From Saccostrea echinata (lineage: Eukaryota): a stretch of 64,000 nt of DNA. The stretch's first letter is position 1; each line of letters opens with the position of its first letter. The stretch covers positions 51,460,001-51,524,000 of the forward strand of contig NW_026889758.1 of NCBI RefSeq assembly GCF_033153115.1, given 5' to 3'. A program made the translations under genes and the position numbers. Under the pieces are notes generated by a model. The model made no database searches. It saw only the letters and a list, made by a program, of their open reading frames with translations, and was not told the origin of the DNA. This document shows positions 26,879 through 63,300 of this stretch, piece by piece.

Positions 26879-29800
26879 TTAATTGTGGGTTAAATTTAAC
26901 TTCTGAAATCTTTTCAAAGCAGTCGCCATCCATGACAATCTGTCACCAAAGTATGCTTTCATTTTATTGTGGTGTACAATCTTGATGTTTGATCGTTCAT
27001 CTGTCTGTACTTGGTATAATAAATCATTGATCTTTTGTAGCACCAAACAAGGACCAAAGTATCTCGGCTGCAGTTTGTAACTCTCCAGGCCAGTATTTGG
27101 GCTTTCTAATAAGATAGAAACTAGGTCACCAACTTTATATTGATTCAGGTTAGATCGTCTGTCATATCTATCCTTCTGCACTCTTAAAGAGTTTTTTAAG
27201 TTTTTCCTAACAATCTGGTTTGATTGATACATACTCTCTCTGAGTTTATATAAATAATCTGCACATGTAGAAAAATTTTCTGTCTCTCTAGAAGAACTAT
27301 ATATGATCTCGAGAGGAAGCTTGACTTCTCTTCCCAACATGACCATGTTTGGAGTAAATTTTGTCGATTCTTGAGGTGTACTTCTGTATGCAAGTGCAAG
27401 ACATCCTAAATTCAAATCCCAATCTGTTTGCTTGCCCTTGATATAAGATTTAATCATACTAATCAGTGTTCTGTTGAAACGTTCAACCAAACCATTGGCT
27501 TGAGGGTTCCTAGGAGTTGTTCTAGTCTTTTTAATTTCTAGCATACTGCATAATTCTTGAAATAGATTGCTTTCAAAGTTACGGCCTTGATCACTGTGGA
27601 TAGATTCTGGGCATCCGAATCGAGCAATGACTTCATTTAGAATTTTATCTGCACAAGTCTGGGCTGTCTGGTCATGAACTGGAAGTATTTCCACCCATTT
27701 GCTGAAGTAATCTGTTACGACTAATATATATTTGTTTCCTCGTGGGGTTCTGGGTAAGGGACCAAGTATATCTATGCATAATCTGTCCATGGGTGCACCA
27801 ACACTCATGTCCCCTAAAGGTCCTTTTGATGATTTAGTAGAAACTTTGTTCATCTGACATTCATGACATTTCTGTATCCATGCATTGATATCTGTTTGCA
27901 TGTCATACCAATGAAAGAATCTTCTTATCTTTGCAGTGGTCTTCTTTTGGCCCAGATGTCCAGAGATCACAGAATTGTGCATCTGATGTAGAACCTGGTC
28001 TCGTAAGGTATGAGGTAGTAGTAACTGTAAGTATTGTAAATCTCCATTGTTAGAGACAAATTTCTTGTACAGAATACCATCTTTCAACTCGATGGAGTCC
28101 CAAATATTACAGTAGTATCTGCAGGGAGGACTGGCATTTTTAGTAGAATTATCATCTGGTTTTTGACCTTTTTCTTTAGAGTTATATATCAAATTCAAGT
28201 CTGGGTCATCTTTCTGTAATTTTGCCATATTTACTGAAAGACATATATCTTGCCAAGATGTAACTTCTGTCTTTGTTTGATTACGAGTAATTACTCGAAT
28301 AGTATTTGTAGTTTTGTTTCTTGTATCTGGCCATCTCTAACGCTCTGGGGTTTCTTCATTTCTTTTTATACACTTTTTACAGGGACCACATCTCAGTGTC
28401 GATTCGGCCTCTTCCACACACTGGCAGTTATGTGGGTCAGGACATCTTGAAAGTGCATCAGCATTGCCATGTTTATGGCCAGGTCGGTATTCAATTGAAA
28501 AATTGTATGAAGAAAGTATTACCCTTGGGTTCTTTAATTTTAAACAACCATACCAAAGCTTGGTGATCAGTTCGGATTTTGAATCTTCTTCCCAAGAGAT
28601 ACTGTCTAAAGTATTCTACAAAATATCGTACTGCAAGCAGTTCTTTATCTGTGACACAATAATTGGTTTCAGCTTTGTTTAAACTCTACTGGCATAGGCT
28701 ATAACTTTTTCTTGTCCGTCTTGTATCTGACTCAATACAGCCCCAATACTGAAGTTACTTGCATTTGCATCAAGTATGAACTCTCCGTCCATTGTAGGGA
28801 AACTCATAATTTCTGGTCCAGTTAGGAGATTTTTAATACATTGGAAGGCCTCTTGACATTCGTCAGTCCACAGAAAGGTACTCCCTTTTTTTGTTAAGTT
28901 AACCAGGGGTCTAACAATACTTGCAAAATCTTTAATAAATTTTCTATAATAGGATGCCATGCCAATTACTTGTCGAACTTCAGTTGGCGTCTTAGGAACT
29001 GGCCAATTCAGGATTTTCTCAATATTATCCGGGTTGGGTTTCACTCCATCTTTATTGATCACATGACCCAGAAAGGAAACTTCCTTTCGAAACAACTGGC
29101 ATTTATTAGGTTTTAATTTTAAACCTGCTTCTTTAATCCTACTTAAAACTTCTGTGACTCTTGTCAGATGTTCTTCAAAATTTGAACCAAATACAATGAT
29201 GTCATCTAGGTATATCAGACACGTTTGCCATTGCAAACCAATTAAAATTATCTGCAGGGTTCGTTGAAAAGTTTGTGCACTCCCCTTCATTCCCATAGGC
29301 ATAGTTAGAAATTCCCACAATCCATATTTTGTTATAAAAGCAGTTATTGGTATATCTGATTCTTTGACAGGAACTTGGTGGTAACCTGAAGTTAAGTCAA
29401 ATGTTGAAAATATTGTTGCTCCAGAGACAGCATCTAGACAGTCTTGAATTCTAGGCAGAGGAAAGGCATCATTTTCTGTCACCTCGTTCACCTTTCTATA
29501 GTCTTTACATGGCCGAATTTTTCCATTTTTCTTCTAAACAAGGTTCAGAGGTGAAGCCCAGGGAGAATTTGATTTTCGAATGATTCCCTCTTTTTCCATA
29601 TCTGTAATTGTTTTAAGTTCAGCTTCAGCATAAGCAATAGGAACTCTTCTGGGTGGAAGTTCAATTGGTCTAGCATTGCCAGTATCAATCGCATGCTCAT
29701 TAATATGAGTCAAACCCAAGTCTAAGTCGTTCTTAGAAAAAGTGTCTTGAAAGTCAAATAGCAATTTGAACAGATCTCTCTGTGACTTTTCATCAAGTTC

Positions 29801-30700
29801 ATTAGACTTCAAGGAGTCTTCGTATAATTGTCTTAAATGTTCAGGTAATTTTTCATTTAATTGTCCTTTTTCTGTTTCAGTGGTATGCCTGACAGTGTGT
29901 CCTATTGTAATATTATCTGCGCTTCCGCCAGGATCTTCCAGCACAGTTTCATATAGAAACTCTTCAGCATTTCCAAGTACGACATATTGCCATATCTGTT
30001 TTTGTGTACAAGTTGGATTCAAAAGTCTGACAGGTACTGTAGTACTTTTCTCTATGTCAATCAAAGAACATGCCATTAACAATTCATACTTTTCTGAAAA
30101 TTTCTCATTTGGTTCCACTATAAACTCTGTAGGCTCTGTACCATCGTCATTCCTCTCGACAAAAGCTTGAATAATCTTCTCACTGTAAGGGGGAACAACA
30201 TAATTATCAGCAGCTGTAACTCTTCGGCATTTGTTGTCTGATTTAACTTGAATGCATGGTATAGTAGTTCCATGTAATCGTACAATTCCTCGACTAAGTA
30301 GAATATCCGCGGGTACTCCCATATTTATCTTGTAAAACATCCACCCCCAAAAGACAATCATCATTTATATTTGCAATGATAATATTCTGTTGTACGAACA
30401 AATCATCCAGGTTCAGAGTAAATTCTGCTTCACCAAGTAAGGTCAAGCTTGTACCACATGCATTCACAATGCCTGGTGTATCCTTAAGCTCAGGTTTCTT
30501 CTTTATTCGTTTAAATACTCTTTCTGACAAGATGGTTCTGGAAGCACCAGTATCAATAGTAAAAGTAACGGGGACATCATTGATTTTTCCTTTGATATAA
30601 ATTCCAGGGCATTTTTCAAAATTTCTTTTGACATCATCAGTAACAAGGCTAATATCTTTTATTTTATTTTCAGATAGGTCTTCGTTCAAAGTCTCCTGGA
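26879..30700 (-). pseudogene. pol: Gypsy pol (protease, RT, RNase H, integrase), frameshifted
   Basis: Protease IDTGAS; RT FDLTSGYHQ and YLDDIIV; RNase H ILDANAS...IGAVLSQ; integrase H-H-C-C, IDILGP, SDQGRNF, VERFNRTL and a GPY/F-like motif. Frames break at ~30330, ~29530, ~28680 and ~28490. Confidence 0.95.
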
Positions 30701-30718
30701 TCGTCTCTCGACCTGCAG

Positions 30719-32512
30719 TTACGATCCCCTGAAGTTTAAATTTCCGGGATATTGTGGTGCTGTACTTCTGAAGTTTTGCTGGGTGACAACTGGACAGTCA
30801 CGAGCAAAATGACCCTGATTGTTACACTGATAACAAGCAGTGTTGGAGGATGTTTTAAATCTGGGAAGAAAGGCTGAGGATTTATTCATCTCGGACAACA
30901 TCTTTTCAAGATTCTGGATTTGTCTTTGCATTCTTAGTATATCATCTTTGAGATCCACATTAGTAGTTCCTGATGTTTTAGATTTATGCATTGTTGTAAA
31001 CGAAGCATCATTTTGTGAAACTGTCTTGGATTCCTTTTCTTTATTTTCAAATCTCTTATTACTTCCTGTTTTTGTATCATTTTCAGTCACTGCCCGAATT
31101 GGACGTTTATCGGCCTTTGAAGAGCTCCTTTTATGAAGATCGCTGAAATTGATCACTTGGAATACAGCATCATCAATGTTGTCTGGCTCTTTTATGTATT
31201 CGACCTGGAACTGGACTTTCTCATCATTGAGACCATCAAAGAATTTTCGAAGTAGATCCTCTCTGCGTATAGTCTCGTCCCTGTTAGGGTATGCCTTGGC
31301 ATATAGTTTCTTTAAGTCTGCTGCATAGACTTCTACAGGTTCATTTGGTTTCTGTCTACGGTTACTGAACTTAGCTTCTAACGACTTCTTAGTTTCTATA
31401 ACTTGGTATCGATTATCTAATTCTCTGATTAGTTTCTTGTAATTAGATTTTGTTCTTTTTGTAAGTTGTTCAAAGACAAATTCTCCTGCTCCACCTTGCA
31501 TTCTAGGTAATAGCTCATCAAGTCTTTCATTGTTTGTCCAATTTCCCCTGTCTGCAATTTCTTCAAATCTGCCCTTCCATACAACCCATTTTTCTTTATC
31601 TTGACCAGTAAAGGGAGGTAACTTATGAGAAAATTTTCAGGGATGTCTCTTTTGAGTTACAATAGATGTAGGTATTCTCTCATCATTAGAATCTGATGTA
31701 CTGCTACTGGTGGAGTCATCTGAGGAGGATGAATTTTCATCGATCAATCTTGCCCGTTTAAGCTGTCTCTCTGACTGGGTTTTTCTAGAAGCACGTCTAT
31801 GTCTGGACAATGTTTTAGACTGAGCTGTATCTGTACGACTCCTTCCAGGGCTTTGGTGCTGTACTGATACACCTGATTGGACTGTATTCAAAAATTTCTG
31901 CATGTCTTTTAAAATTGTGGCCAAATCATCTCTGTTGTCAGACAACTGATACATAGGGGGCTGGTATACTGGATTGTTCATTTGTTTACTTCTGACATCT
32001 TCGTGATTTTGTCTCATTGCATTTGAATGATCTGATCTAGTAACTGGAGGACAGGAATATGGACGCCCATTCTTGGGAGGGATCGATTCATGCAAATCAT
32101 CTATAGACGAATCATCTGTCAAATCATGGATTGGTAGCGGAAATTGATTAGGGTTATCTCCCCTATCGAGGATGAACATTTGTTCATTGCACCTTTCTGG
32201 TGTTGTATGTTTTTGTTCATTTGTAATAAATGATTGTGACACATTTTCTGTGTTTAAAGGATTCATATGTAATGAATTGTGCATCAAATTTGATGTTGAA
32301 GTTGTGCATGACATATGCATAGTGTCCTGTACAGTAAATTTACTGTTTATAACACTTTTATTTCCAAAAGGATTTTCAATTCCAGTTTTTAAACTGTTGT
32401 CAGAATTTATTTTGTCTACACACTGCCTATCATTTTTCTGTCTCACACTCACATCATCTGACATCTCATCAGCTTCTACAACAACCAGACCCTTTCTTTT
32501 ATTCTTTCCCAT
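30719..32512 (-). pseudogene. gag: Gypsy gag with one in-frame TGA at 31637-31639
   Basis: The two ORFs share a frame (HP*KFSHKLPPFTG...); zinc knuckle CYQCNNQGHFARDC. Confidence 0.9.
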
Positions 32513-32637
32513 ATTATCTATCTGAACACTGCCTAATCAAAAATAAAAATAAACTCACACATCAACTTTTATTTTTACAAACAACTAGCAAAAATATAAA
32601 AAGGTTCGTATCTCTGGATACCTATAAAATTGAAGGT

Positions 32638-32655
32638 ATCCCGCCGTGGATGCCA
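32638..32655 (-). promoter_or_regulatory. Primer-binding site
   Basis: TGGCATCCACGGCGGGAT a few nt after the 5' LTR. It starts with TGG, the complement of tRNA CCA; the tRNA identity is not assigned. Confidence 0.75.
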
Positions 32656-32659
32656 AAAA

Positions 32660-34661
32660 TGTAACGCTAGCGGTTCTGCTAGAAATTGTTTTCATAGAAT
32701 TAATAATTCTCTCAACTCCTTTTATAAATGTACCATTCGCAAAGAAGACATAAGATTATTAACATTAAACAATTAAATTTATTAAGTGCATTATCAACAA
32801 ACAATTTATTTAAACGACGACATTCACACCACATTCATACCCAACTAATAATAATAAATAAGTTTAATAAAAATAAATAATTAAATCATACCATAAAACA
32901 GACTGAAAAACCACCCCAAAAATCTAACGTGTCTATTCCTATGCGTATAAAATATGTGACAACAAGTCTTAGTTATTTATAACTTTGACTTGTAAAACTT
33001 AACACCAAGCTTTACTGTATTTAACAGGTTAGCTTGTTAAACTCCTAAAATACTTTATTAAATAGGGACACAAGCCGTGGTTATTTATAACTTTGACTTG
33101 TTAAACCTAACAACAAGCATTACTGTATTTAACAGGTTAGCTTGTAAACACTAAGGGCAAAGAAAGATAACTCTAATAATCATAAGTAAGTTTATCGAGA
33201 AGCAACGTTTAAAAATTCCCAAGTACTCTAATAAAATAATTTCTATTAAAAATAATTGAAGAGAAATTTACGTATCTAGAATAATTAAATTACTGTATGA
33301 AAATAAAATAAATAATTGACTTTCGTTGAACTAATCAACTTTACTCATCATAAAAGAGAAAGATAGCAAACGTATAACTTTAGTTACATAGTTTGCATTA
33401 AAATGAAAATGAAATAAAATAGAGTAAAAATGAAAAATAAAATAATCCTGGATAAATTAATTACTAAAGAAGACTACTCAGTCATAGACTGTTGAGTCTT
33501 TAAAACAACCGATAGCGGACAATAGTATCTTACTATTTTGTGTCCTACACGGTAAAACCCTATCCTAAATAAATAAATTAAAAATAAATTCCTAAATAAA
33601 AATAAATAAATAAAATAAAATAAAATAAAAGATAGACAAAATAAAAGTTAAAATAAAATCCTAAAAAAATCTGAGAGTTCCGTAAAACGGACCTACCAAA
33701 TCAAAATAAGCAGAAGAGTGACTAAAAAATCTCAGCGTCTAACTTTTATATGACTCTATGACAGAAAATAACGGAAAATGCTGGAAAATAACGGATATTA
33801 ATAGAATTATTAATTATGAAATTTCATTGGATTATCAATTAATGATCAATTATATCGAACAATCTGATTGGTCAATTGTAAAACATCACGATCTTTCACG
33901 TGAACAAGTGTCACCAAATATTCTATACAAGTATGAAATAATGAATTTTTACATATTTATCAATTAAATAAAAATCTATTTCACAATAAATAATTAAAAC
34001 AAAACAAATTAAACTTAAAACAATATTCAGTTTATCTAAAAATACAGTCATTCATAAGATACCGCCATTCAAACTCGATATATTTATCGGTTATATTACA
34101 AATGCAAGGATAAATTTATCAATTACTTTAACAAGTTTCTAAACCGGAAGTACATCGTAATGAAGAGCGAAACTGTCAAACAATGTGACAACAGAAGTTT
34201 AGACTATTTCACAGGTATTATACCAACTAAATAACACTAACCAAACAACAATTACTTACTATTTGACACAGTTATAGTCTTCGAATTATCTCAGTCATGT
34301 TTATGTTATCAAAATATATCAATCTACCCTTGTTTCACAAGTATATACATTTACAATTAAGTGACTTAGGTACAACTCTGCGAATAGCACATTCTATAAA
34401 ACAAAATAAAACTGTGAATAAACAAACTGCATCAACCCGCTCCAAATCACCACAATGCATGATAACATATTACAGTCATTGACCCTATTTGATAGAAAAA
34501 TCAACCCGCTCCAAGCTCACACATATATAGTAAAATATTACAGTCATTGACTCAGAATGATTAAACACTGTTGTGGATAAAATAAAAAGTTACACCATGT
34601 AACCTAACATTACTATTATTGCATCATTTAAAAAAAGGGGGGGGGGGTCACATGCACTACA
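32660..34661 (-). repeat. 5' LTR (2002 bp)
   Basis: Direct repeat of 22257-24322 with a 71-bp deletion, a 9-bp insertion and scattered substitutions. Confidence 0.97.
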
Positions 34662-35107: not shown

Positions 35108-35327
35108 AGTAGTAAGGGGTATAGTCTGGGGTCTATATGGGGTCACTGACGTCATGGGTCCGTCTGGGGTCACCCATCCCATGAAAGCCGTCTGAGGTCG
35201 ATGACGTCACGACCCATCCCATAAAACCGTCTGGGGTCACCCATCTGATAAAACCGTTTGGGGTCACCCATCCCACAAAGCCGTTTGGGGTCACCCTTCC
35301 CATCAAACAGCCGTCTGGGGTCACCCC
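35108..35327 (+). repeat. Left TIR with internal ~27-bp subrepeats
   Basis: AGTAGTAAGGGGTATAGTCTGGGGTC...; repeated CCGTCTGGGGTCACCCATCCC. Confidence 0.95.
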
Positions 35328-35739
35328 TCCGTTTTTCCCACGATCAAATTCTTGGTTTTTCCACTAGGGGATTGTCTCAGACACACCCTATAAATTCCTC
35401 ATGTTTATTATATAAACTCCAAGTTTCATTTAGATTTTTATTCTGCAAAGAGGAAACACTTTAATTTATACAAAGACAGTACTTGTATTAGTAAGTATAC
35501 TTTGCTTAATTCTTGTTACCCAACATGCAGTTTCTTTTCTTTCTTGTTACCCAAATAATTTCCCCTTTTCAAGAATTACACTTTCATTTTTTTTTTAAAT
35601 ATTTTATTAGCATGATTTTTAATATTTTATTAATTCTTATAAATATAAGAACAAAGGAATATTAATGAGAACCTTCAATAGACCTACATTTAACAAACAA
35701 AGGCTTCATAATAGTTAACTCAAATAAAACCTAACTTTT

Positions 35740-36040
35740 TAAACATTTGAAATTATTTTAAACATTTCAAATAATCCTGCATATAATTAACAATCATTGA
35801 AGTTTGTATTGAGTCCACTCTAACTGAATCACTTACTTTCTTAAACATTTGAAATTATTTTAAACATTACAAATAATCCTGCATATAATTAACAATCATT
35901 GAAGTTTGTAATAATTAAGTTCAGTCTAACTGAAACAACTACTTTTTTAAACATTTGCAATTATTTTAAACATTTCAAATAATCCTGCATATAATTAACA
36001 ATCATTGAAGTTTGTAACAAGTCCACTCTCACTGAATCAA
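35740..36040. repeat. Three tandem ~103-bp repeats overlapping a gene 3' end
   Basis: AAACATTT..AATTATTTTAAACATT.CAAATAATCCTGCATATAATTAACAATCATTGAAGTTTGTA occurs three times. Confidence 0.9.
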
Positions 36041-36459
36041 TGAGTTCAGAAAGGGCGCTTAACTCCTCCTTAAGAGGATACTGCCTCGACGTTTGCGAAG
36101 ATGCGGGGGTCCCTGTCCCTGATGGGACTGCTGGTAGCACTGGTGTATTTCTAGCTGTCGGTGTTAGGGTATGGTCAGGAGTCGGAAGGTTAAGTATCGA
36201 GTTAAATTCTGTTGGTGTAGATGACAGGTTAAGGGACGATGCGGGGCTGGATGGAACACATATAGACGAAGACGGGCTATATCCCAACGCAAACTCTGAT
36301 TTGATTGGTGGTGTAGGACATGGGTTATATCCATACGCAAAGTCGGGTGCCTGGGGGTCGAGCTCAGCTTTAATTGGTGGTGGTGAGGGACAAGGTGGGC
36401 TATAGCCTATCGCAAACGTTCTTCTCTCTAGCGCTTCATATTTAGCAGGATTATCCTTC
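35961..36459 (-). CDS. Terminal exon of a Polinton Pro/Ser-rich protein of unknown function
   Basis: Open frame from the acceptor TTATTACAG: KDNPAKYEALERRTFAIGYSPPCPSPPPIKAE...FAYGYNPCPTPPIKSEFALGYSP...DYLKCLK*. The upstream exon was not located. Confidence 0.55.
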
Positions 36460-37334
36460 CTGTAATAATGAACATATTTAAAATGAAAAAATTTGTGAAT
36501 AGATGTAAAATTAGAAATATCTGGTCACATTAATCATTTTTGTCTGTTATATTTAAAAAACACTTCGTACAGAAAAATAAATATGTGTTGAAATATTGTA
36601 TTATAATGACCACACAATATTCGTGCATCTATCGTTATGCGCAATAAAGATACCCTTATGTTGACCACATTTCATACTAATGAATATTATTGATAATTTA
36701 AGTCGTATATTCAACCTGAACGGGGTACACATCATAACCGTATTTGGAAAGGTCTAAAAGTCGCATGTACAGATCGATAAAATTTGACCTAAACGCAAAA
36801 AGTGTGTCAAAGTTTATTCAGATCACAAGAGTCGTATCTAATACGTTGTAATATTTTAAAAAAAAAAAACAGCCCGTATTAAAAAAAGTAACTACATGTT
36901 CAAAAATGTCATATCACACAATGTGGGTTTTTGTGAACAAAAGTCATGAATTATAAAACTGTCGATCGTGCGTTGAAGTCTGTATATATCCAATTCATTT
37001 AATCTATATTTTATTAATATAAATCTAAATTTGCGCCTTTCACGTTATTTTAACCCAAACCATCCTTCAATATCTGTCATCGTGTGTGTGTGTATAAGGG
37101 TTTCCACGAGAGAGAGAGAGAGAGAGAGAGAGTATTACGATGACTCTCAGAGTGCATCATGCACTTACAAATGTATTTCATTTCAACAGAATTAATAATC
37201 TTAGTTTATATAGCATATATATGAATTAATTTTGAAAAAAGGGTAGATCAGAAGATCACGTGACCAAAATTTTCGCGCGGATATGTTATCACGCGCTCAT
37301 GCTGAAAAAAAAGATGGAGGAGAGGTCTGTGAGG

Positions 37335-39565
37335 ATGATGTGTGTTATAGGCCTATCTATTGCTTTATGCCCCGTAATTTTGGGTGCCGTATTAAGGAGT
37401 CCCACCAGAATCGTTAAGACATGTTACTTGCCTTGTATTAATATCACGGTGCAAGCGTCAGAAGTTCGAGACGTTTTTGTGACGTCATGTAGACTGAACT
37501 CTGTATTCGTAATTGGAAATATGTCTTCGGTACATATTCACCCACTGGACCAAAGTCACAAAGAATGTGGTAAGTCTTATATATTTCAATTTCAATTAAG
37601 TTATCGTACACAGATCCCATTATCCCCCCCCCTTTCATTGTTGGACAAGTGAAGTAGTACTGAACTTCAGTTCAGTACTGAAGTAATTAAATTTGCATCA
37701 AATCTGGGTTTTTTTCATATTGGTATTGAGGTGATCACTAGTGAATTAATTTTTTATCGACCATTAAAAAGTACACATAACTGCAAAAAAAAAAAGACGC
37801 TTTATCTCCGAAGGTTTACGGAAAGTGCTGCGCGTTTAAATAAAGATCGGGTTCGACATAATATGAATTCGAAAATCAGAGGCATTCCGAATGTTTCATG
37901 AATTCTATTTTTTTAAATTTCAGAGCCAAAACAAATCACAGAAACGGGGAAGAACGGTGAGCATTTGAATATACTAATTAAGAAAGATTGTGTGTGTGTA
38001 AACATATATAAAGTCTTATAAATATTGCTGTAAAAGGATCTATAGGTAAGGGTGACATTATCAGACCTCGGGTGGCATTAAGTCCATACAGTCTTGAACA
38101 TGTTGAAAATTTGAAGTAGAAAGGTTTTATGATACCCTTTTTCCCCTCAGAACCAGTTGAGAAAACGACCAGGCAAGTGGTTTCAAGAACGACAAGAACA
38201 ACGATAGCTATCACTGAGACCCGAACACCTCATCCCACTAAAGAAGAAGGTAATGGAGGTAAGATGTATACCATAAGTATATAACACATGATGTTTGTGT
38301 ATAGTCAATGCGTGGCAAGTATACTTTCGTGAACATGGTCAAGGTATAAAAGAACAAAATAATGTTCATAATGTCTTTTTGTTTTATTTTTCAGAGCCAG
38401 TGGAGAAAACAACACAGCCTAGGATTACAAGAAGGACAAGAACAATGATAGCTAGCCCCATGATCCGAACACCTCATCCCACTAAAGAAGAAGGTAATGG
38501 AGGTAAGATGTATACCATAAGTATATAACACATGATGTTTGTGTATAGTCAATGCGTGGCAAGTATACTTTCGTGAACATGGTCGAGGTATAAAAAAAAA
38601 AGGAAAGAAAATGTTCATAATGACTTTTTGTTTTATTTTTCAGAGCCAGTGGAGAAAACAACACAGCCTAGGATTACAAGAACGACAAGAACAATGATAG
38701 CGAGCACTGAGACCCAAACACAAGAGAGAAATTACAAAGATCTTGCTGAGGGTATATCTGGTTCATCCATCTATATTATTGTCATTTGTTCACTTAATTT
38801 GTTATTTCTCTTTTTATTTAAAACAAAGAAAATAAAAAATATGTATTTAGATAAATGTAAGAAAAAAAGAAAACATGTGAAAAGAAAAAAAAAGTTGAGT
38901 ACATGGTTGTTTAGAAAAAATCAGATAGTTAAGGAAAACAAATTACCATCAAAATATGAGCTTCAGGAAATTATAAGATCTTGTACAAAGTCAGATGATG
39001 AATTTGAAGATGATGACTTTTATGATGAAGTAAACTTTGATTCAAGATTGTACGTTAATAAAAAATAGATTTTGTAAAGTGATTTTTTTTTTTAAAAACA
39101 CATGTAAAGTATATAATGTTTCATAAATTATGTGAAGAAATCTTGTTTTTGAGAGCTACATTTTTTTTTGTAGATTATCTGATATGGGCTATCATTATTA
39201 CGATTTGCTGTAAAGTGTCTTTGGTCATCATAATTCGACTTTCAATTAAAATTCGACGTACAAGAATGCATGACATACCGATGCGATTGACAGAGATTGA
39301 CTCCCCTGCTCCTACCACACCACCACCAGCTGCTCCTTCCGCACCACCACCTTCTGCACCAGAGAACCCTCCAGAGAACCAACCCTCTGCACCAAACCAA
39401 ACCCCTCAATTAGGTCATACAGACACACCTAGGGGTGCAGAAGGAATTGAAATGTCATATTTTACACCCCAAACTGCCAAACCCTTGATTCAATCCAAAA
39501 CATCATCCCCCATTGCACTCCGAACCAGGTCGCACACACGTAAAAAGTTGAATTTTCATGTGTAA
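37335..39565 (+). CDS. Six-exon type I membrane protein with mucin-like stalk (exons 37335-37569, 37924-37956, 38151-38249/58, 38395-38493/502, 38644-38751, 39174-39565); alternative read-through end at 39068
   Basis: Signal-peptide-like MMCVIGLSIALCPVILG; all five introns are GT-AG with pyrimidine tracts and all are phase 1; Thr/Pro-rich repeated exons; TM YLIWAIIITICCKVSLVIII; Pro-rich tail. Confidence 0.8.
38151..38720 (+). repeat. Tandem ~245-bp exon+intron duplication (about 2.3 units)
   Basis: EPVEKTT... exons start at 38151, 38395 and 38644 with near-identical introns. Confidence 0.92.
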
Positions 39566-51498: not shown

Positions 51499-52482
51499 TT
51501 ATTCAGAATCACTTTCGATTGTCTGTGAGTCTTGTAAGTCACCGACATTACATTCCATGGACACATCTTCTGTCGGATTATATCCAAAAGGAGTACACTC
51601 TGGACAACTTAACATTCCAAGCTGATTTTGATGGGACTCGCTGAACACACACAGTTCTGTATCATTTAATTCGGGAACATATTCTCGTACTTCTTCAACG
51701 GCTTGTAGTAATTTAGTCAACTTGTATTTGTTCAAAGACACACCTTTTCTGGTTGGTACCGGTTCTAGGGCATCGTCTGGCTTCCAAAAGTGCCTAATGT
51801 CTACTGAGGTATACCCAGGGTTAACAGAGACGAAGACACCCCCTCCAATATGCCATTTCATCTCTACATCAGCTTCATTGTTTTGCAGATAGTTGGCGAT
51901 ATCTGGTAGAAGAGACTCAAATTTCAGCCATCGGCACAACGGGAATGTCACCCCCTTCTTTGTTGCAAAATAACGACCGTTAGATTCTGTAAAGTGACGG
52001 ATGTGAATATTGATATCCCCCTTGAATGGCACGGCTGTAAGGAAAAGATCGTTGAAGTCATCCAGACTGATTCTACACCGCTCTTCTTGTGAGTTTTGTT
52101 GTTCTGAAGGGTTACTTTTCGGCTCAGACTTAATAATTCGTTTTTCTGACATGTTCACAACCAGCGACCTGGCCATTGCTAACTTCTTTTCGTACTCGGA
52201 CATGTTATTATCACCGACTGAGAGAAGCTTGGATAAGTCTGTTTGGTTAGCTTTCATAAGTGCCATTCGAAGACCTGTAAAACCTTTTGGTCCTCTGCGT
52301 AGAATGATACTTATTAGCTTTCTGTTACGATCATAACTGGTCTTTTCGGCTTCAATCTGCTGTCTCATCTCGTCGGTTATAATGTTGGAGGCAAAGAGAT
52401 GCCCAGCAACGGAAGAGGTCATCATTTTTTTCACCAGAGTCGTGTAGTTTGCTTTGATTATATCCTGATGTTTCTGTTCCAT
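51499..52482 (-). CDS. CARD + tandem PC4-like ssDNA-binding domains + C-terminal Cys motif
   Basis: Residues 1-88 fit a death-fold CARD pattern (LF...IIT.EM.Q.IEAE.T..DRNRKL+.II.RRGP..F..L..AL). Two PC4 signatures: FKG.INIHIRHF...ATKKGVTF...W and VDIRHFW...PTRKGVSL. C-terminal C...HQNQ.G...CPEC. Confidence 0.85.
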   Translation of the reverse strand: MEQKHQDIIKANYTTLVKKMMTSSVAGHLFASNIITDEMRQQIEAEKTSYDRNRKLISIILRRGPKGFTGLRMALMKANQTDLSKLLSVGDNNMSEYEKKLAMARSLVVNMSEKRIIKSEPKSNPSEQQNSQEERCRISLDDFNDLFLTAVPFKGDINIHIRHFTESNGRYFATKKGVTFPLCRWLKFESLLPDIANYLQNNEADVEMKWHIGGGVFVSVNPGYTSVDIRHFWKPDDALEPVPTRKGVSLNKYKLTKLLQAVEEVREYVPELNDTELCVFSESHQNQLGMLSCPECTPFGYNPTEDVSMECNVGDLQDSQTIESDSE

Positions 52483-52623
52483 CTTTGCTGAAGAGAGGGT
52501 GATGCTTCTTTTACGATCAATTCAGATATGTTGGAAATTTTTACAATAAACCCGTTTTTATAACAAAATTGTCACGTGCTTGATTGACCTTAGACTTTTC
52601 ATAAAAAGGAGTGTTTTTTCTTT

Positions 52624-53187
52624 TTAAAAAAAGTGACTGCAGACAATTTTGACTGCAGACGGAATTGATCTCAGACGTAATTGACTGTAGACATTTTTCT
52701 TGGAGATAATAGTAAATCCTGACTGTATACTGAATTGACGGTAGACATTTTGATAGTATTTAGTTTTTCTTTCACTTTTTTTTTTTTTAATGTAGTGAAG
52801 AGTTTCTGATATTATATTCATAATATCTTCCACAGTATCCGCCATTTCTCTCAACACATAAAGCGGATTTCCATGACGTACTTTTTCTTTTCTATGAATA
52901 AGCCAGTGAAGACTGTAATCCATTTTTTCTGACAGTTCCCTAAACTGGTCCACTAGATCTTTAAGTTTTCTCCAGTCTGAAGCGCCCACTTTAATATCAT
53001 CTCTTTTCATAATTTTGACTTGTGTTTTAAGAGCAAGTGCGCTTCTAACGCATTTCATCAGACGTGTAATGTGCATCAGCAGCTCTTCTTCTTTTCGATT
53101 GGTTAAAACGTTAAAAATGTTTTTACACATTCTGTTCCATTGCAATTTTGTTCTTCTTAATTGTCTTTCCATTGTCAGACCTTCCAT
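52624..53187 (-). CDS. Basic helical protein of unknown function
   Basis: Intact ORF; likely ATG at 53187 with a TATA-like TATATAAA ~45 nt upstream. Confidence 0.65.
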   Translation of the reverse strand: MEGLTMERQLRRTKLQWNRMCKNIFNVLTNRKEEELLMHITRLMKCVRSALALKTQVKIMKRDDIKVGASDWRKLKDLVDQFRELSEKMDYSLHWLIHRKEKVRHGNPLYVLREMADTVEDIMNIISETLHYIKKKKSERKTKYYQNVYRQFSIQSGFTIISKKNVYSQLRLRSIPSAVKIVCSHFF

Positions 53188-53267
53188 TTTCAGCAAAAGG
53201 TATGATGTCTTACGCAAAAAACACCTCAGTTTATATACACGACAGTCCTCGTCACTCCCTTTTTTTT

Positions 53268-53474
53268 TTAATTACACTTGACCTCAGACATTTTGATGTT
53301 ATTTAGTTTTTGAAGTAGGATAGGTGACAACAATATCTCGACATGATCAATTCTTCTTTTAAAATGAGCCCTGTCAACAGCATATTGCATCCATATTCCT
53401 TTCCGTTCTTCATAAGGAATTGCAATTATATGTACACGATCATTAAATTGAATATTCCTTTGCACTGGTTTCAT
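53268..53474 (-). CDS. PPP1R15/GADD34-ICP34.5-DP71L family PP1 regulatory subunit (68 aa)
   Basis: RVxF-type RNIQF, then V.II, then RKGIWMQYAVDRAHFKRRI...E..LSPIL, matching the RxGxW...A.DR.RF.RRI...E..L.P.L family signature. Confidence 0.9.
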   Translation of the reverse strand: MKPVQRNIQFNDRVHIIAIPYEERKGIWMQYAVDRAHFKRRIDHVEILLSPILLQKLNNIKMSEVKCN

Positions 53475-53579
53475 TTTGTTTCACTAAAGGAGTGTCTGTT
53501 CACAGAAAGAGATCGATCTAAAATACTAATGTTCACTCTTCCTTCAATTTATTTATACAAACTAATCATGAATATGAGT

Positions 53580-54065
53580 CTATGCACTAATTTGTTGTTC
53601 ACTGGGCGTCCAATCACCCCAATACTCTTCGTGTCGCCAAGTTCCATCAGGCCACAAGAAAGTCATTGTACCGTTGCAGTAACTTTCAATTTGAGATTCG
53701 TAATGAGCGTCTTTCATGATGCTGTACGGTACACGGTCGGCCATGATAGTTTTCAGGACTTCTGAGAACTCCATTGGTTCCTCCAAAGACACATCTTCAA
53801 GATCACATGCGCGCAAGCAAAAGGTTGCCATCTTCAATGGATCGAGTTTTGATTCCTTGGCCAGTTTCACCAAACAATGTTTCTCGTGTACAAATTTCGT
53901 TCTCAAAGAATATTGCTTTTTACAAAAGTCACAGGACCGGCAATCTCCATTATCTGCAATATACTTATCAATCCGTTTTTTGACAATGGCTCCCCACTTC
54001 AAAAAGTTTCTAAAGTATATCTCATCATTGCATAGAATATCCTCACTGCTCCAATAATCATCCAT
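53580..54065 (-). CDS. Cys/His-containing protein of unknown function (161 aa)
   Basis: Intact ORF with C-x2-C-x2-C...H-x2-H-C; TATATAA ~45 nt upstream, next to the right TIR. Confidence 0.7.
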   Translation of the reverse strand: MDDYWSSEDILCNDEIYFRNFLKWGAIVKKRIDKYIADNGDCRSCDFCKKQYSLRTKFVHEKHCLVKLAKESKLDPLKMATFCLRACDLEDVSLEEPMEFSEVLKTIMADRVPYSIMKDAHYESQIESYCNGTMTFLWPDGTWRHEEYWGDWTPSEQQISA

Positions 54066-54156
54066 TTTGCTGTTTTATAAAGAATTATTATATATTTTTG
54101 TCTCTTCTCCTTATATAGATCGTCAGACGGCTTTGGGAGTGGTTGGTGATTATTTA

Positions 54157-54374
54157 TGTGACCCTAGACAGTTTTTGAGGGGATGGGTGACCCAAAACGG
54201 TTTGATGGGATGGGGGTGACCCCAAACGCTTTAATGGAATGTGTGACCTCAGACGGTTTTATGGGATGGGCCATGACGTCATTGACCCCAGACGGCTTGA
54301 TGGGATGGGTGACCCCAGACGGACCAATGACGTCATTGACCCCAAATAGACCCCAGACTATACCCCTTACTACT
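54157..54374 (-). repeat. Right TIR
   Basis: Imperfect reverse complement of 35108-35327. Confidence 0.95.
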
Positions 54375-58463: not shown

Positions 58464-58682
58464 TTAATTCTTCATTCCTGCTGTAATTGAATAATGTAAT
58501 TGTTCAAACAATGGTATTAAGTGCCATTCAACCTCTTTTGGGTTGTCTTTTCCCCATTTTCTATACATGACTGTATTACGCAAACAAAGATTATCACAAA
58601 CATGACTATAATATTTCACTGCTAAATTACAGGTGACACTTCTGACCATTCTGTCTTTTCTACCGCTATTTTCCTCTGCAGT

Positions 58683-58960
58683 AGTAGTTGTATTAATTTC
58701 GTAAGTTCTAAAGCTTGTAAATGATAGTTTGGAGATACATATACAGAACAAAGGGTAATTGTTTTTTCAAGAGAAAGGCGTACAGCTACTGCCTGAAGAT
58801 TTGTTTTAAAAACTATTTGGCTGTGAATGTATTTATTGTTAATTGCTGGTGAAGTATCGCCAGATGCTCTCTCAGTTTGAGCATAATAGTTATACATACT
58901 ATAGTTTTTAATTGACCTTAAAACCTCGGCAATTCCATTGTATTAACGTAGGATGATTCA

Positions 58961-59006
<46 letters not shown>

Positions 59007-59054
59007 CATTTTGTCTGTAGTCCGTCTGTAAACTTTTCACATTTTCGACTTCTG

Positions 59055-59095
<41 letters not shown>

Positions 59096-59098
59096 AGT

Positions 59099-59133
<35 letters not shown>

Positions 59134-60037
59134 TAAGGGCCACACCTTCTTCCAAGGGGAGATAATTAAGAATTCGTGAAAAATTAATGGCATCATTAAA
59201 AAAATCTTCTCAAGAACCACTGTGCTTGAAAACATGAAACTTATGTGGAAGCATCCTCAGGTAGTGTAGATTCAAGTTTGTTCAAATCATGACCCCCGGG
59301 GGTTGGGTGGGGCCACAATGGGCGATCAAAGTTTTACATAGGAATATATAGGAAAAATCTTCAAAAATCTTCTTCTCAAGAACAACAAAGCCATAATTGG
59401 TCATATTTATATGGTAGCATCCTCAGGTAGTGTAGATTCATGTTTGTTCAACTCATGACCCCCGGGGTCCTGTGGGGCCACAATGGGCGATCAAAGTTTT
59501 ACATAGGAATATATAGGAAAAATCTTTAAAAATCTTCTTCTCAAGAACAACAAAGCCATAATTGGTCATATTTACATGGAAACATCCTCAGATAGTATAG
59601 ATTCAAATTTGTTCAAATCATGACCCCCAGGGGTAGGATGGGGCCACAATGGGCGATCAAAGTTTGACATAGGAATATATAGGAAAAATCTTTAAAAATC
59701 TTCTTCTCAAGAACAACAAAGCCATAATTGGTCATATTATATGGTAGCATCCTCAGATAGTTTAGATTCATGTTTGTTCAACTCATGACCCTGTGGGTCG
59801 GGTGGGGCCACAATGGGCGATCAAAGTTTTACATAGGAATATATAGGGAAAATCGTTAAAAATCTTCTCAAGAACAGCAAAGCCCTGATTGGTCATATTT
59901 AAATGGAAGCATCCTCAGATAATGTAGATTCAAATTTGTTCTATTCATGATACCCCCCCCCCCCACCACCACTTTTATATTTAAACTTTTCAACCTTTCA
60001 AGACTGAAGTGATTTCTGCTTTTTCGTAGCCATAGTG

Positions 60038-60073
<36 letters not shown>

Positions 60074-60391
60074 TTTATTATGAGAAATAGGTGATATCCT
60101 CCCTTTATTTTTATTGGGTGATATACTTCGGACTTGTGAGGAAGAATGACAAGTGTAAAGTCCATCTCCTCGAAGACTTCAAACTTATTGTGGAGGGTGA
60201 CGGCATCTCGTGCCCCTTTGGGTAGCCGATCACTCGACTGTGTCTGGTTGTTTTTTGAGGGAGATTTATTACGTCTCCCAGTCGATGTTGATTTTCCTGT
60301 AGCTGGTAGCTCTGATGGAGCCGTAGCTACAGTTTTTGATGCAGCCGCAACTGCAGGGCCTGCAGAAGCAGGTTTTGGAGTAGGTTCCTGC
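58683..60391 (-). mobile_element. Inverted 5' segment of the LINE (ORF1 end 60073-60391; ORF2 endonuclease start 58683-58961)
   Basis: MNHPTLIQWNCRG...LQAVAVRLSLEKTITLCSVYVSP (APE endonuclease N-half); ORF1 tail with NKFEVF. Confidence 0.8.
58963..60072 (-). mobile_element. Complete HINE-like element with ~5 copies of a ~166-bp repeat (Cg170-like)
   Basis: TTTTAGCTCACCTGAGCCGAAGGCTCAAGTGAGC ... GCTCAGGTGAGCGATGTGGCCCATGGGCCTCTTGTT; CATCCTCAG at 163-166-bp spacing. Confidence 0.88.
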
Positions 60392-63300
60392 TCCATTTAT
60401 GATTGTGGGTGACTTTAAAGCCCACAATCCACTATGGGGTAGCGACAAAATAACTGATAAAGGGAAAAAAAATGAAGATGCAATATCACATCATAATCTG
60501 TGTATACTTAATGACGGCTCTAGCACTTATTTGCATCCGGGTAATGGTTCGTATTCCTCAATAGATATTACTTTAATAGATCCTTCTTTACTCTTAGATT
60601 TTAATTGGTCAGTACACGACGATTTATGCGGGAGTGATGATTTCCCAATTATCATTAAAATAAATAATCCTTCACAAAATAGTTCTATTCAAAATTGGAA
60701 ACTAAACAAGGCTGATTGGACGCAATTTGAAAAATATGCTTACAAAATATTTCGGCTGAAAAGTTTCAGAACCATCCTGATTCTATACAAAAATTTACTG
60801 AACCATTATTGCATACAGCAAATAAATGCATACCTAAAACCTCGGCAAATTCCACTAGAATCAAAAAACCATGGTATACAGAAGAATGTAATGATGCTAT
60901 TAAAGCTCGAAAAAAAGCAGAAAGACTATTTAATAGATTACCAACATCAACAAATTTAAGCAATTTCCGCATATTGAGAGCAAAAGCTCGCAGAACTATA
61001 AACTTTAGTAAACGAAAATCTTGGAAAAAGTTCGTTTCCAACCTTAATTCACACACTCCTATCAATAAAGTTTGGAACGCAATAAAAAAAAATTAAAGGG
61101 AAAGGTCCTGAAAAATATCAGCATCTTAATGTTGGAATTAAAATTATTACGGATAAAAAGGAAATATCTGATGAAATAGCAAATACAATTTCTAAAATTC
61201 CTCCACAAACAATATAAGTTCTAAATTTAGTAAATATAAAAATTCACAAGAAAAGGTAATGTTTGATTTTACATCTGAAAACTCATATGCATCCATTTAC
61301 TTTAGATGAATTACAAAAGTCTTTAGATAAATCTCATGATACAGCGGTAGGACTGGACCAGATCCATTATCAACTTATTAAACACCTTCCTTTAAACAGT
61401 AAAGAATGTCTTCTGCAAATTTTTAATAAGATCTGGAAGCGAGGCCATTTTCCACCTTCCTGGACCCAAGCTACAGTTATTCCTATCCCTAAACCGGGAA
61501 AGCACCACGTAGATCCTAACAATTACCGTCCAATTGCTTTAACAAGCTGCTTATGTAAAACCCTGGAAAGGATGATAAATGAACGCTTAATATGGTTTCT
61601 TGAAACTTATAACATTTTAACTAATATATAATGTGGTTTTAGAAAAAAAACGAATACTACTGACCAGTAAGTAAGACTGGAAACTTATATTCGAGATGCC
61701 TTTATTAAAAAAGAGCATGTTGTATCTGTATTTTTTGATTTAGAAAAAGCATATGATACTACATGGAGACATGACATTTTGAAAGATCTTTATAAAATGG
61801 GCCTTAAAGGACACTTACCCAATTTTATCAAGAATTTTTTGAATGATAGACATTTTAAAGTACGCTTGGGGTCTACATATTCGGAAAGTTTTGATCAGGA
61901 AATGGGTGTACCACAAGGTAGTATTTTATCAGTCACTTTATTCAGTATAAAAATTAACAGCTTAGCAGAAGTACTTAAAAATGATATGCATGGAAGTTTA
62001 TACGTCGATGATTTTGTTCTTTGTTATAAGTCCAAAAATACGAATTATATTGAGCGAAAATTACAGTTTTGTCTAAACAGAATTCAAAATTGGGCTGATG
62101 AAAATGGATTTAAGTTTTCGAAAAGTAACACCGCTTGCGTGCATTTTTGCACCAAACGGAAAACCCATGATGAACCACATTTGCGGCTACAATGGAAATC
62201 CTATAAAAGTAGTTAAAGAGATTAAGTTTTTAGGCATTATCTTTGATAGTAAACTCTCTTTTGTATCACATATTAAAATGCACAAAGGCTTTAGATGTTC
62301 TCAAAGTTATTTCAAGTACAAGATGGGGGGCAGATAAAAATACTCTTTTAAAACTTTATCGCTCTTTAGTCAGATCTAAGTTAGACTATGGATGTACTGT
62401 GTATGGCTCTGCAAGAACTTCATACTTAAAAGCTCTTGATGCAATCCATCATCTAGGCCTTCGACTGTGTTTAGGAGCTTTTCGAACTTCTCCTATAGAT
62501 ACTTTATATGTCGAAGCAAACGAGCCACCTCTCGACTTAAGAAGAATTAAACTTACCTTACAATATATTCTGAAACTAAAAGCAAATATTGATAATCCTG
62601 CGTATGATTGTGTTTTTCGTCCGCAACACGAAGGCTTGTACCTTAAAAGTAAAAAATGTATAAAACCCATTGGTCTAAGATCGAGAAAACATATCAGGGA
62701 TTCTGACCTACCTTTGGACATAATTCAACCCACAAATTTCTCTAAAATACCACCATGGAAATTAATTAAACCAAAAGTAGATACATCCTTAACATAATTT
62801 AAGAAATCAGAAACAAATTCTCTTATTTTTAAACAGAAATTAGCTGAAATGAAACATTTTAAGAATTCTACAGTTGAGATTTATACAGATGGTTCAAAGG
62901 ACAAAAATGGAGTAGCAGCGGCTGCAGTGATTAAGAATAATGTTTTTTTTTCTCGGCTTCCAAACGAAGCGACAATTTTTACAGCAGAGGCAAAGGCCAT
63001 ACAACTTGCATTTGAATATATTAAATCTTCTAATGACAAAACATTTACAATATTTTCGGACTCGCTCTCTTGCTTAAAATCTATACAAAATATGAATATT
63101 GATCATCCATACATTTTGGATATATTAATTCAATATCATTTTACTCAACAAGGTAAAACAGTTGACTTTTGTTGCATTCCAAGTCATATTGGCATACCTG
63201 GAAACCTAAGGCTGATAGTGCTGCAAAAAGGGCACTTCACCATGATATAACTTTATTCAAAATACCTTACACTGATTTGAAATATCTTGTTAAACTTTAC
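60392..63300 (+). pseudogene. I-group (I/Nimb-like) LINE ORF2: endonuclease C-half, RT, RNase H; degraded and 3' truncated
   Basis: GDF.AH, SIDIT, NYRPIALTS, GVPQGSILS, YVDD, IYTDGSK, FSDS, IPSHIGI; several stops and frameshifts. Confidence 0.93.

Follow-up and report, generated by a model that had tools for sequence, protein, structure and literature searches.

A weak last donor as a likely switch between two membrane anchors in an oyster Polinton glycoprotein gene

In polyomaviruses the C-termini of small t and large T are set by the use or non-use of one splice donor, and the same holds for secreted versus membrane IgM. Alternative splicing and polyadenylation also operate in adenovirus E3, and adenoviruses are related to Polintons. 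The adenovirus E3/49K protein, with its Ig-like CR1 domains and 19-residue tail, is described as a glycosylated type I protein sorted by YxxPhi and LL motifs, with a disordered linker in its ectodomain (PMC13437282). In another group of viral membrane proteins the tail carries tyrosine motifs: in vaccinia A36 and in p14 of reptilian orthoreovirus an Nck site precedes a Grb2 site at a spacing of ~20 residues, a spacing also given for LAT and nephrin, and the Nck ligands include pY-DEV in Tir and pY-DSV in A36 (PMC9333988). The Grb2 site of p14 is YVNI (PMC7244324). Membrane-active genes described in Polintons and adintoviruses include PLA2X, GasderminX and Cupiennin (PMC8502044), and the nematode Polinton fusogen MFUS-1 is an 866-aa gB-like protein (10.1101/2022.07.12.499685). 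Passages from these two sources and from PMC11071296 and 10.1101/2025.02.07.637071 cover other membrane-active genes and intron-bearing cargo, and contain no mucin-stalk protein or coding intron. Our literature searches returned no paper on the gene described here or on a Polinton coding intron; adintovirus supplements may annotate relatives.

The gene lies in a 64,000-nucleotide stretch of Saccostrea echinata DNA (the window), in which a six-exon gene inside a Polinton, predicted to encode a type I membrane protein, has its 3' end at positions 38644..39565. Every exon junction is in phase 1. The features, in window coordinates, are:

35108..54374, no strand assigned: Polinton/Maverick element of 19,267 bp, with AGTAGT termini, terminal inverted repeats and the 6-bp TSD GAGGAA
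37314..37569, + strand: exon 1, signal-peptide-like N-terminus and Cys/beta ectodomain of ~55 aa, donor GTAAGT; annotated oyster proteins start and splice here
37924..37956, + strand: exon 2, 33 nt, phase 1-1; the matching peptide is present in annotated oyster models
38151..38258, + strand: exon 3, 108 nt, Thr-rich stalk repeat, second donor 9 nt upstream
38395..38502, + strand: exon 4, 108 nt, Thr-rich stalk repeat, second donor 9 nt upstream
38644..38751, + strand: exon 5, 108 nt, last Thr-rich stalk repeat, common to both predicted isoforms
38752..39173, + strand: last intron, 23% GC over 422 nt; its donor GTATAT departs from the consensus, and its phase and location are conserved family-wide
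38751..39068, + strand: tail A read-through frame, running through a TM, a basic stretch, the RKNQIVK..LPSKYEL block and an acidic cluster to YDEV (39021) and YVN (39051)
39057..39062, + strand: AATAAA overlapping the last codons of tail A, with a T-run behind it; not family-wide
39174..39565, + strand: terminal exon (tail B), TM and Pro/Ser/Thr-rich tail; junction used in annotated oyster models
41148..45833, + strand: pPolB region, in pieces in the window copy, directly downstream of the six-exon gene

Like polyomavirus T and IgM, the oyster gene has one N-terminal part and two C-termini; unlike them, both of its predicted outcomes are membrane-anchored, each with its own TM. C-termini set by donor choice are already known, and two alternative membrane anchors in one conserved Polinton intron would be a new form of that arrangement. 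With E3/49K the predicted oyster protein shares the glycosylated type I form, the tail with sorting motifs and the disordered linker in the ectodomain (PMC13437282), although its ectodomain has no Pfam, PDB or fold match and its two alternative tails are long. The window protein also resembles A36 and p14, as a single-pass viral membrane protein with an Nck-type tyrosine upstream of a YxN, and p14, like tail A, combines YVN(I) with a polybasic motif (PMC7244324). No homology to either was noticed, and it departs from both in the spacing of the two motifs (10 residues rather than ~20), in the restriction of the pair to one sub-clade, and in having a tail that would be one of two splice outcomes. 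Unlike p14, with its tiny ectodomain, the oyster gene has a signal peptide and a long stalk, and the short ectodomain without signal peptide of FAST proteins is not what it encodes: before the TM come a signal-peptide-like start, the ~55-aa domain and a stalk of >110 aa, with no conserved Met near the TM. Finally, the intron-bearing cargo described near the left TIR of nematode Mavericks is comparable in that the oyster gene is likewise a Polinton accessory gene.

We propose, with a probability of roughly 0.55, that the weak last donor is a switch between two TM/tail ends of one Polinton surface glycoprotein and that the switch changes its trafficking. This reading ranks first and the Nck/Grb2 actin model second; its computed basis is the gene layout, the open frame, the conservation of the intron and of both frames, and purifying selection. 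Splicing of the last intron would give a TM and a Pro-rich tail, and retention a different TM with a basic and then acidic tail, likely redirecting the trafficking of the protein; both mRNAs would be made at some stage of the life of the element. Host sorting machinery would read tail A through its acidic cluster and YxxPhi, as in furin and adenovirus E3/49K, while phosphorylation of the tyrosine, with binding to Nck, may be an added feature of the sub-clade whose tails carry Y-[DE]-[DES]-[VI]. By analogy with adenovirus E3 membrane proteins, the small beta domain on its Thr-rich stalk would interact with a partner from the host or from a virus. Acidic clusters and YxxPhi motifs are described as binding AP-1 mu1 (PMC5584140). 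An acidic cluster is found near the tail end in 9/10 lineages and a YxxPhi stands at that cluster in 5, but four lineages have no YxxPhi near the tail end, which is a point against the sorting reading.

The anatomy of the two ends had been put forward in a sequence-only reading of this DNA, and it is borne out. The donor (GTATAT after a G, at 38752) and the acceptor (TAG before ATT, ending at 39173) are both in phase 1. If the donor is skipped, reading continues through 105 open codons until the stop at 39068, a length matched in 1 of 20,000 dinucleotide shuffles of the intron; the other four introns of the gene are open for only 27, 21, 8 and 8 codons. The second TM (SSIYIIVICSLNLLFLFLF; mean hydropathy 2.36 over 19 aa), the basic stretch and the acidic tail with YDEV and YVN are all present, with AATAAA at 39057 next to the stop. 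Splicing instead leads into the exon 39174-39565, with a different TM (hydropathy 2.76) and a Pro-rich tail that ends in PIALRTRSHTRKKLNFHV. By summed lengths, the predicted isoforms are of 334 aa with the last intron removed and 309 aa with the intron kept.

Two observations concern other parts of the gene. At the end of tail B (window 39490-39565) lies a conserved P/C-V/I-x(3-4)-TR-S/L..basic-L-x-F block, found also in the last exons of L054, L056, L059, L060, L064, L071 and L074, from lineages that are <45% identical; this block, odd for a membrane protein tail, is reminiscent of the chromatin-tethering peptide of HCMV IE1 and the cyclin RxL or PP1 RVxF docking motifs. Tandem donors 9 nt apart are present at 38250-38258 and 38494-38502, and C. 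gigas models show the corresponding three-residue difference.

Genome searches and fetched stretches of the 923-Mb genome gave 19 copies with a resolved last intron. They form 10 lineages, between which the first 28 residues of the last exon are ≤46% identical. Eighteen exon-1 loci were fetched and the last intron was resolved in nine of them; all 22 exon-1 matches lie on 5 of the 425 contigs (C5, C6, C9, C33 and C36). Left out of the counts were L054 (too decayed to score), L053, L058 and L065-L070 (no terminal exon in the part scanned), the disrupted pieces L077/L078 and the weak matches L027-L030, which are noise. The frame is open from the donor to the acidic tail in 8 of the 19 copies (the window, L080, L073, L074, L056, L057, L059 and L064). 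Stops in other copies had been named in the sequence-only reading as counting against the second end, and they do occur: the frame is broken in another 8 copies, in which remnants of the tail are shifted to a different frame or preceded by a stop (L079, L071, L072, L075, L076, L055, L063 and L112), and tail A is lacking in 3 (L060-L062). The expected conservation of the open frame held at the level of lineages, an acidic tail being seen in 9/10. Breaks are also present in the terminal exon, with stops after 47, 41 and 19 codons in L055, L057 and L063, and pPolB in these copies is broken too; the breaks therefore reflect general decay. L060-L062 are three near-identical copies with long intact pPolB matches and a read-through of only 17 codons, and because they have no tail, tail A is dispensable in this young lineage.

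Judged from codon comparisons, the tail A frame is under purifying selection (dN/dS 0.29–0.37 in the two deeper window pairs). Substitutions at the three codon positions number 12/12/29 between the window copy and L071 (dN/dS 0.37) and 23/21/40 between the window copy and L073 (0.29), and tail A of L057 and L059 gives 0.21. Weaker values were obtained for window/L079 (0.65), L064/L056 (0.59), L057/L055 (0.50) and L073/L075 (0.79), and two further pairs have no synonymous change, so that dN/dS is not computable. With the intronic frame conserved and under purifying selection, the idea of one ectodomain with two mutually exclusive TM/tail ends is supported. The last intron has been kept as a second coding end over deep divergence, and gene predictors miss it. 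That selection acts on two alternative anchors is an argument for virus-like action of these elements on host membranes; the family of membrane proteins is uncharacterised, and it bears on how animal Polintons leave and enter cells.

The gene may also have moved between elements. In an unrooted pPolB tree of 14 rows, L090, an element with a YDDI tail, groups with the L057/L059 elements (100/100), whose tails have no such tyrosine, which suggests that the gene was exchanged between element lineages. At L073:5219-5554, in the YDDI lineage, exon 1 is far more divergent (profile domain E 0.1) and the RKNQIVK..LPSKYEL block is kept; module exchange is possible there.

The position and phase of the last intron and its non-consensus donor are kept over the 19 copies and 10 lineages. 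The acceptor is kept in 10/10 lineages, as is the beginning of the last exon in phase 1, G/D-F/L/Y-L/F-x-W, with L for W in one lineage. At the donor the Gly codon is GGT in 10/10 lineages, versus 39 of 119 Gly codons across six further ORFs of the same element, the lineages being related and the trials not independent. Among the last donors, 15/19 are GTA without +5G, 4/19 are GTCAG and none (0/19) is GTRAG, while the exon-1 donors resolved (12 of 16 loci) are all GTAAGT or GTTAGT, with +5G and +6T. Loss of the tail does not simply accompany a +5G donor, as L060-L062 (GTCAGT) have no tail but L112 (GTCAGC) keeps remnants with YDSI. The junction is spliced in five full-length annotated models (the C. 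gigas XP_0199250xx set, A0A8W8II46, A0A8W8JKI1, an S. cucullata protein and P0033), all of them predictions; P0033 matches locus L055 and is therefore not independent of the S. echinata genome. Many C. gigas isoforms differ by the 9-nt donor shift, which suggests that these models have RNA support. A regulated retention switch would be expected to combine a persistently weak donor with an open frame beside it, as here.

The alternative that fares best, although we consider it unlikely, keeps the two ends and changes the role of tail A. By analogy with A36 and p14, tail A would be a phosphotyrosine platform in which YDEV binds Nck and YVN binds Grb2, and actin would push particles or membrane into neighbouring cells. 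The sequence-only reading had stressed the A36-like order of the two motifs and looked to their conservation. This order stands for the window lineage and for the outside protein clusters P0001, P0003 and P0005 (55–83% identity), in which YDEV..YxN is kept, and it is found in 0.09–0.3% of tail shuffles, with patterns that were chosen after the tail had been seen. The first tyrosine is indeed conserved, in these three outside clusters and, as Y-[DE]-[DES]-[VI] after the acidic run, in 5/10 lineages (YDEV, YEDV, YDDI, YDEV and YDSI), a pattern that fits the Tir and A36 ligands (PMC9333988), and YVN is the start of the YVNI of p14 (PMC7244324), a protein that stems from a family of non-enveloped viruses and carries a polybasic motif as well. 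What did not stand is the pair as a family trait. What 9/10 lineages have in common is a TM, a basic stretch and an acidic cluster near the tail end; a YxN after the Nck-type tyrosine is found in 1/10, the window lineage, L071/L072 breaking at this place and being unscorable. The Nck-type tyrosine is absent from 4 of the 9 tailed lineages (L055, L056, L057/L059 and L063/L064), and the L063/L064 tail has no tyrosine at all. The 10-residue spacing also falls short of the ~20 residues of A36, p14, LAT and nephrin (PMC9333988). Moreover, the pattern [DE][VI]x[FY] spans 7 lineages with and without the tyrosine, drawn from the same tails and so not independent; the Phe or Tyr two residues after the V/I, common to tails with and without the tyrosine, is a feature that SH2 binding would not need.

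On the host side, SH2 exons of Src-family (a kinase that would suit the Nck/Grb2 model), PI3K p85, SHP2-like and RasGAP type were recognised among the 7 of 49 genome matches checked. Nck and Grb2 were not among these seven; both are expected in the host, as in animal genomes generally. Judged on the residues conserved, the resemblance to A36 and p14 is real for the window sub-clade, but the Nck/YxN pair is not what the family conserves. As an analogue, p14, from a non-enveloped virus, would be nearer than A36. Nck binding is plausible as an add-on of the sub-clade, and on its own in the tyrosine clade it could coexist with the trafficking switch. The scenario in which, at the infectious stage of oyster Polintons, the weak splice site switches the surface protein to a phosphorylated, Nck-recruiting tail (with Grb2 in the sub-clade) and so drives actin-based cell-to-cell spread, convergent with A36 and p14, is a shade more doubtful again. 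Natural tail variants with and without the tyrosines are ready controls for separating sorting from Nck/Grb2 signalling.

A second alternative concerns how the mRNA for tail A would be made. The sequence-only reading had invoked alternative 3' processing, and on this point the pattern across the family leans the other way. Cleavage and polyadenylation inside the intron, giving a composite terminal exon, would be suggested by the AATAAA at 39057 and the T-run 20–30 nt behind it; the hexamer is also present in L079/L080, and in L073/L074 an AATAAA lies ~80 nt past the stop. In the window, however, the hexamer doubles as the last N-K-K codons in an intron of 23% GC. The open tails of L056, L057, L059 and L064 have neither AATAAA nor ATTAAA in the 34–58 nt that separate the stop from the acceptor, and in L075/L076 only 9 nt lie between the two. 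Because of these four open-tail copies, intron retention fits better family-wide, and we regard intronic polyadenylation as improbable, although cleavage may add to retention in the window sub-clade. When a last intron is retained, no additional poly(A) site has to be supplied, and the mRNA has no exon junction past the stop that could trigger NMD.

Conservation is the ground on which we predict the retained isoform. Four of 24 RNA runs were examined, with 0 joints in 4/4 and reads too few or too DNA-like to inform on isoforms: X1 reads cover the introns evenly, like DNA, X7 gave 5 contigs, and X9 and X11 gave 19 and 5 reads, mostly partial. A weak search among 159 candidates returned no full-ectodomain protein with tail A. 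That the spliced form is the only one made today, the intronic frame being either left over from an earlier terminal exon or a short gene in its own right with a separate start, is the least probable alternative: all five annotated full-length models have the spliced tail, no retained transcript was seen in the four runs of little information, and 8/19 copies are broken and 3/19 without tail, but the frame is conserved under purifying selection over lineages <46% identical, the breaks strike the terminal exon and pPolB as well, and the lack of a conserved Met before the TM and the acceptor of the preceding exon speak against a short gene.

In the trafficking switch, the part common to both forms is the ectodomain. 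Its ~55-aa exon-1 domain has four Cys and two N-glycosylation sequons, and was modelled as five beta-strands (pLDDT 69.8, pTM 0.48). No Pfam or PDB sequence match was found for it, and the model gave no fold match (best VIA Z 3.1); CAP_C/TBCC beta-helices were considered and rejected, the Atlas leads scoring only 0.78–0.83. A 15-sequence alignment of the ectodomain retrieved 41 representatives at E ≤0.001, a few of which are unrelated noise. Among the homologues of the gene, the named ones belong to Crassostrea/Magallana gigas, C. virginica, Saccostrea echinata and S. cucullata; by database names the family is present in at least 4 oyster species, filed as host 'mucin-2-like' or 'zonadhesin'. 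Four C. gigas entries with the names 'mucin-2-like' or 'Zonadhesin' (P0050, P0076, P0077 and P0088) are close relatives of the Polinton gene. Those scored are 79–84% identical over exon 1, and these C. gigas entries are probably genes of elements that were annotated as belonging to the host. Tail A has matches in eight outside proteins; in P0001–P0005, which cover the end region entirely or almost so, YDEVNF and a YxN are kept. The matches of tail A in the Atlas were unnamed clusters only, and scans of viral contigs with the exon-1 alignment and of metagenomes with tail A gave no confirmed relative.

The 19.3-kb element is taken as a complete Polinton on its TIRs, TSD, pPolB and integrase. Pfam matches over cut-off identify pPolB (PF03175) and an rve integrase (PF00665) with a chromodomain (PF00385). 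ORFs of a size and order fitting major and minor capsid, packaging ATPase and adenain-like protease genes lie at 46.6–50.1 kb, with a visible Walker A; they had no Pfam matches, and their names are putative. The layout with the gene followed by pPolB is common to most relatives, and Polinton core genes are found downstream in 8/10 lineages, with none in the fetched stretches of L055 and L075/L076. In the window pPolB (41554-45833) the frame breaks near 43,530 and an intron is probable at about 44,100-44,240, and the ATPase-like ORF of this element also drifts out of frame. On the minus strand, 51499-52482 is a Polinton ORF in which a CARD is fused to a PC4 domain, both over the Pfam cut-off, and 35964-36524, in the left arm, is an open frame of 187 codons, rich in Pro and with repeated IKxE; L079 has a relative in the corresponding position. 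A Ty3/Gypsy-type LTR retrotransposon with LTRs 98.7–98.8% identical (22253-34661) flanks the Polinton closely on the left, and the fragmented ORFs at 58600-63250 (minus strand) look by eye like a decayed LINE, with endonuclease, RT and RNase H pieces.
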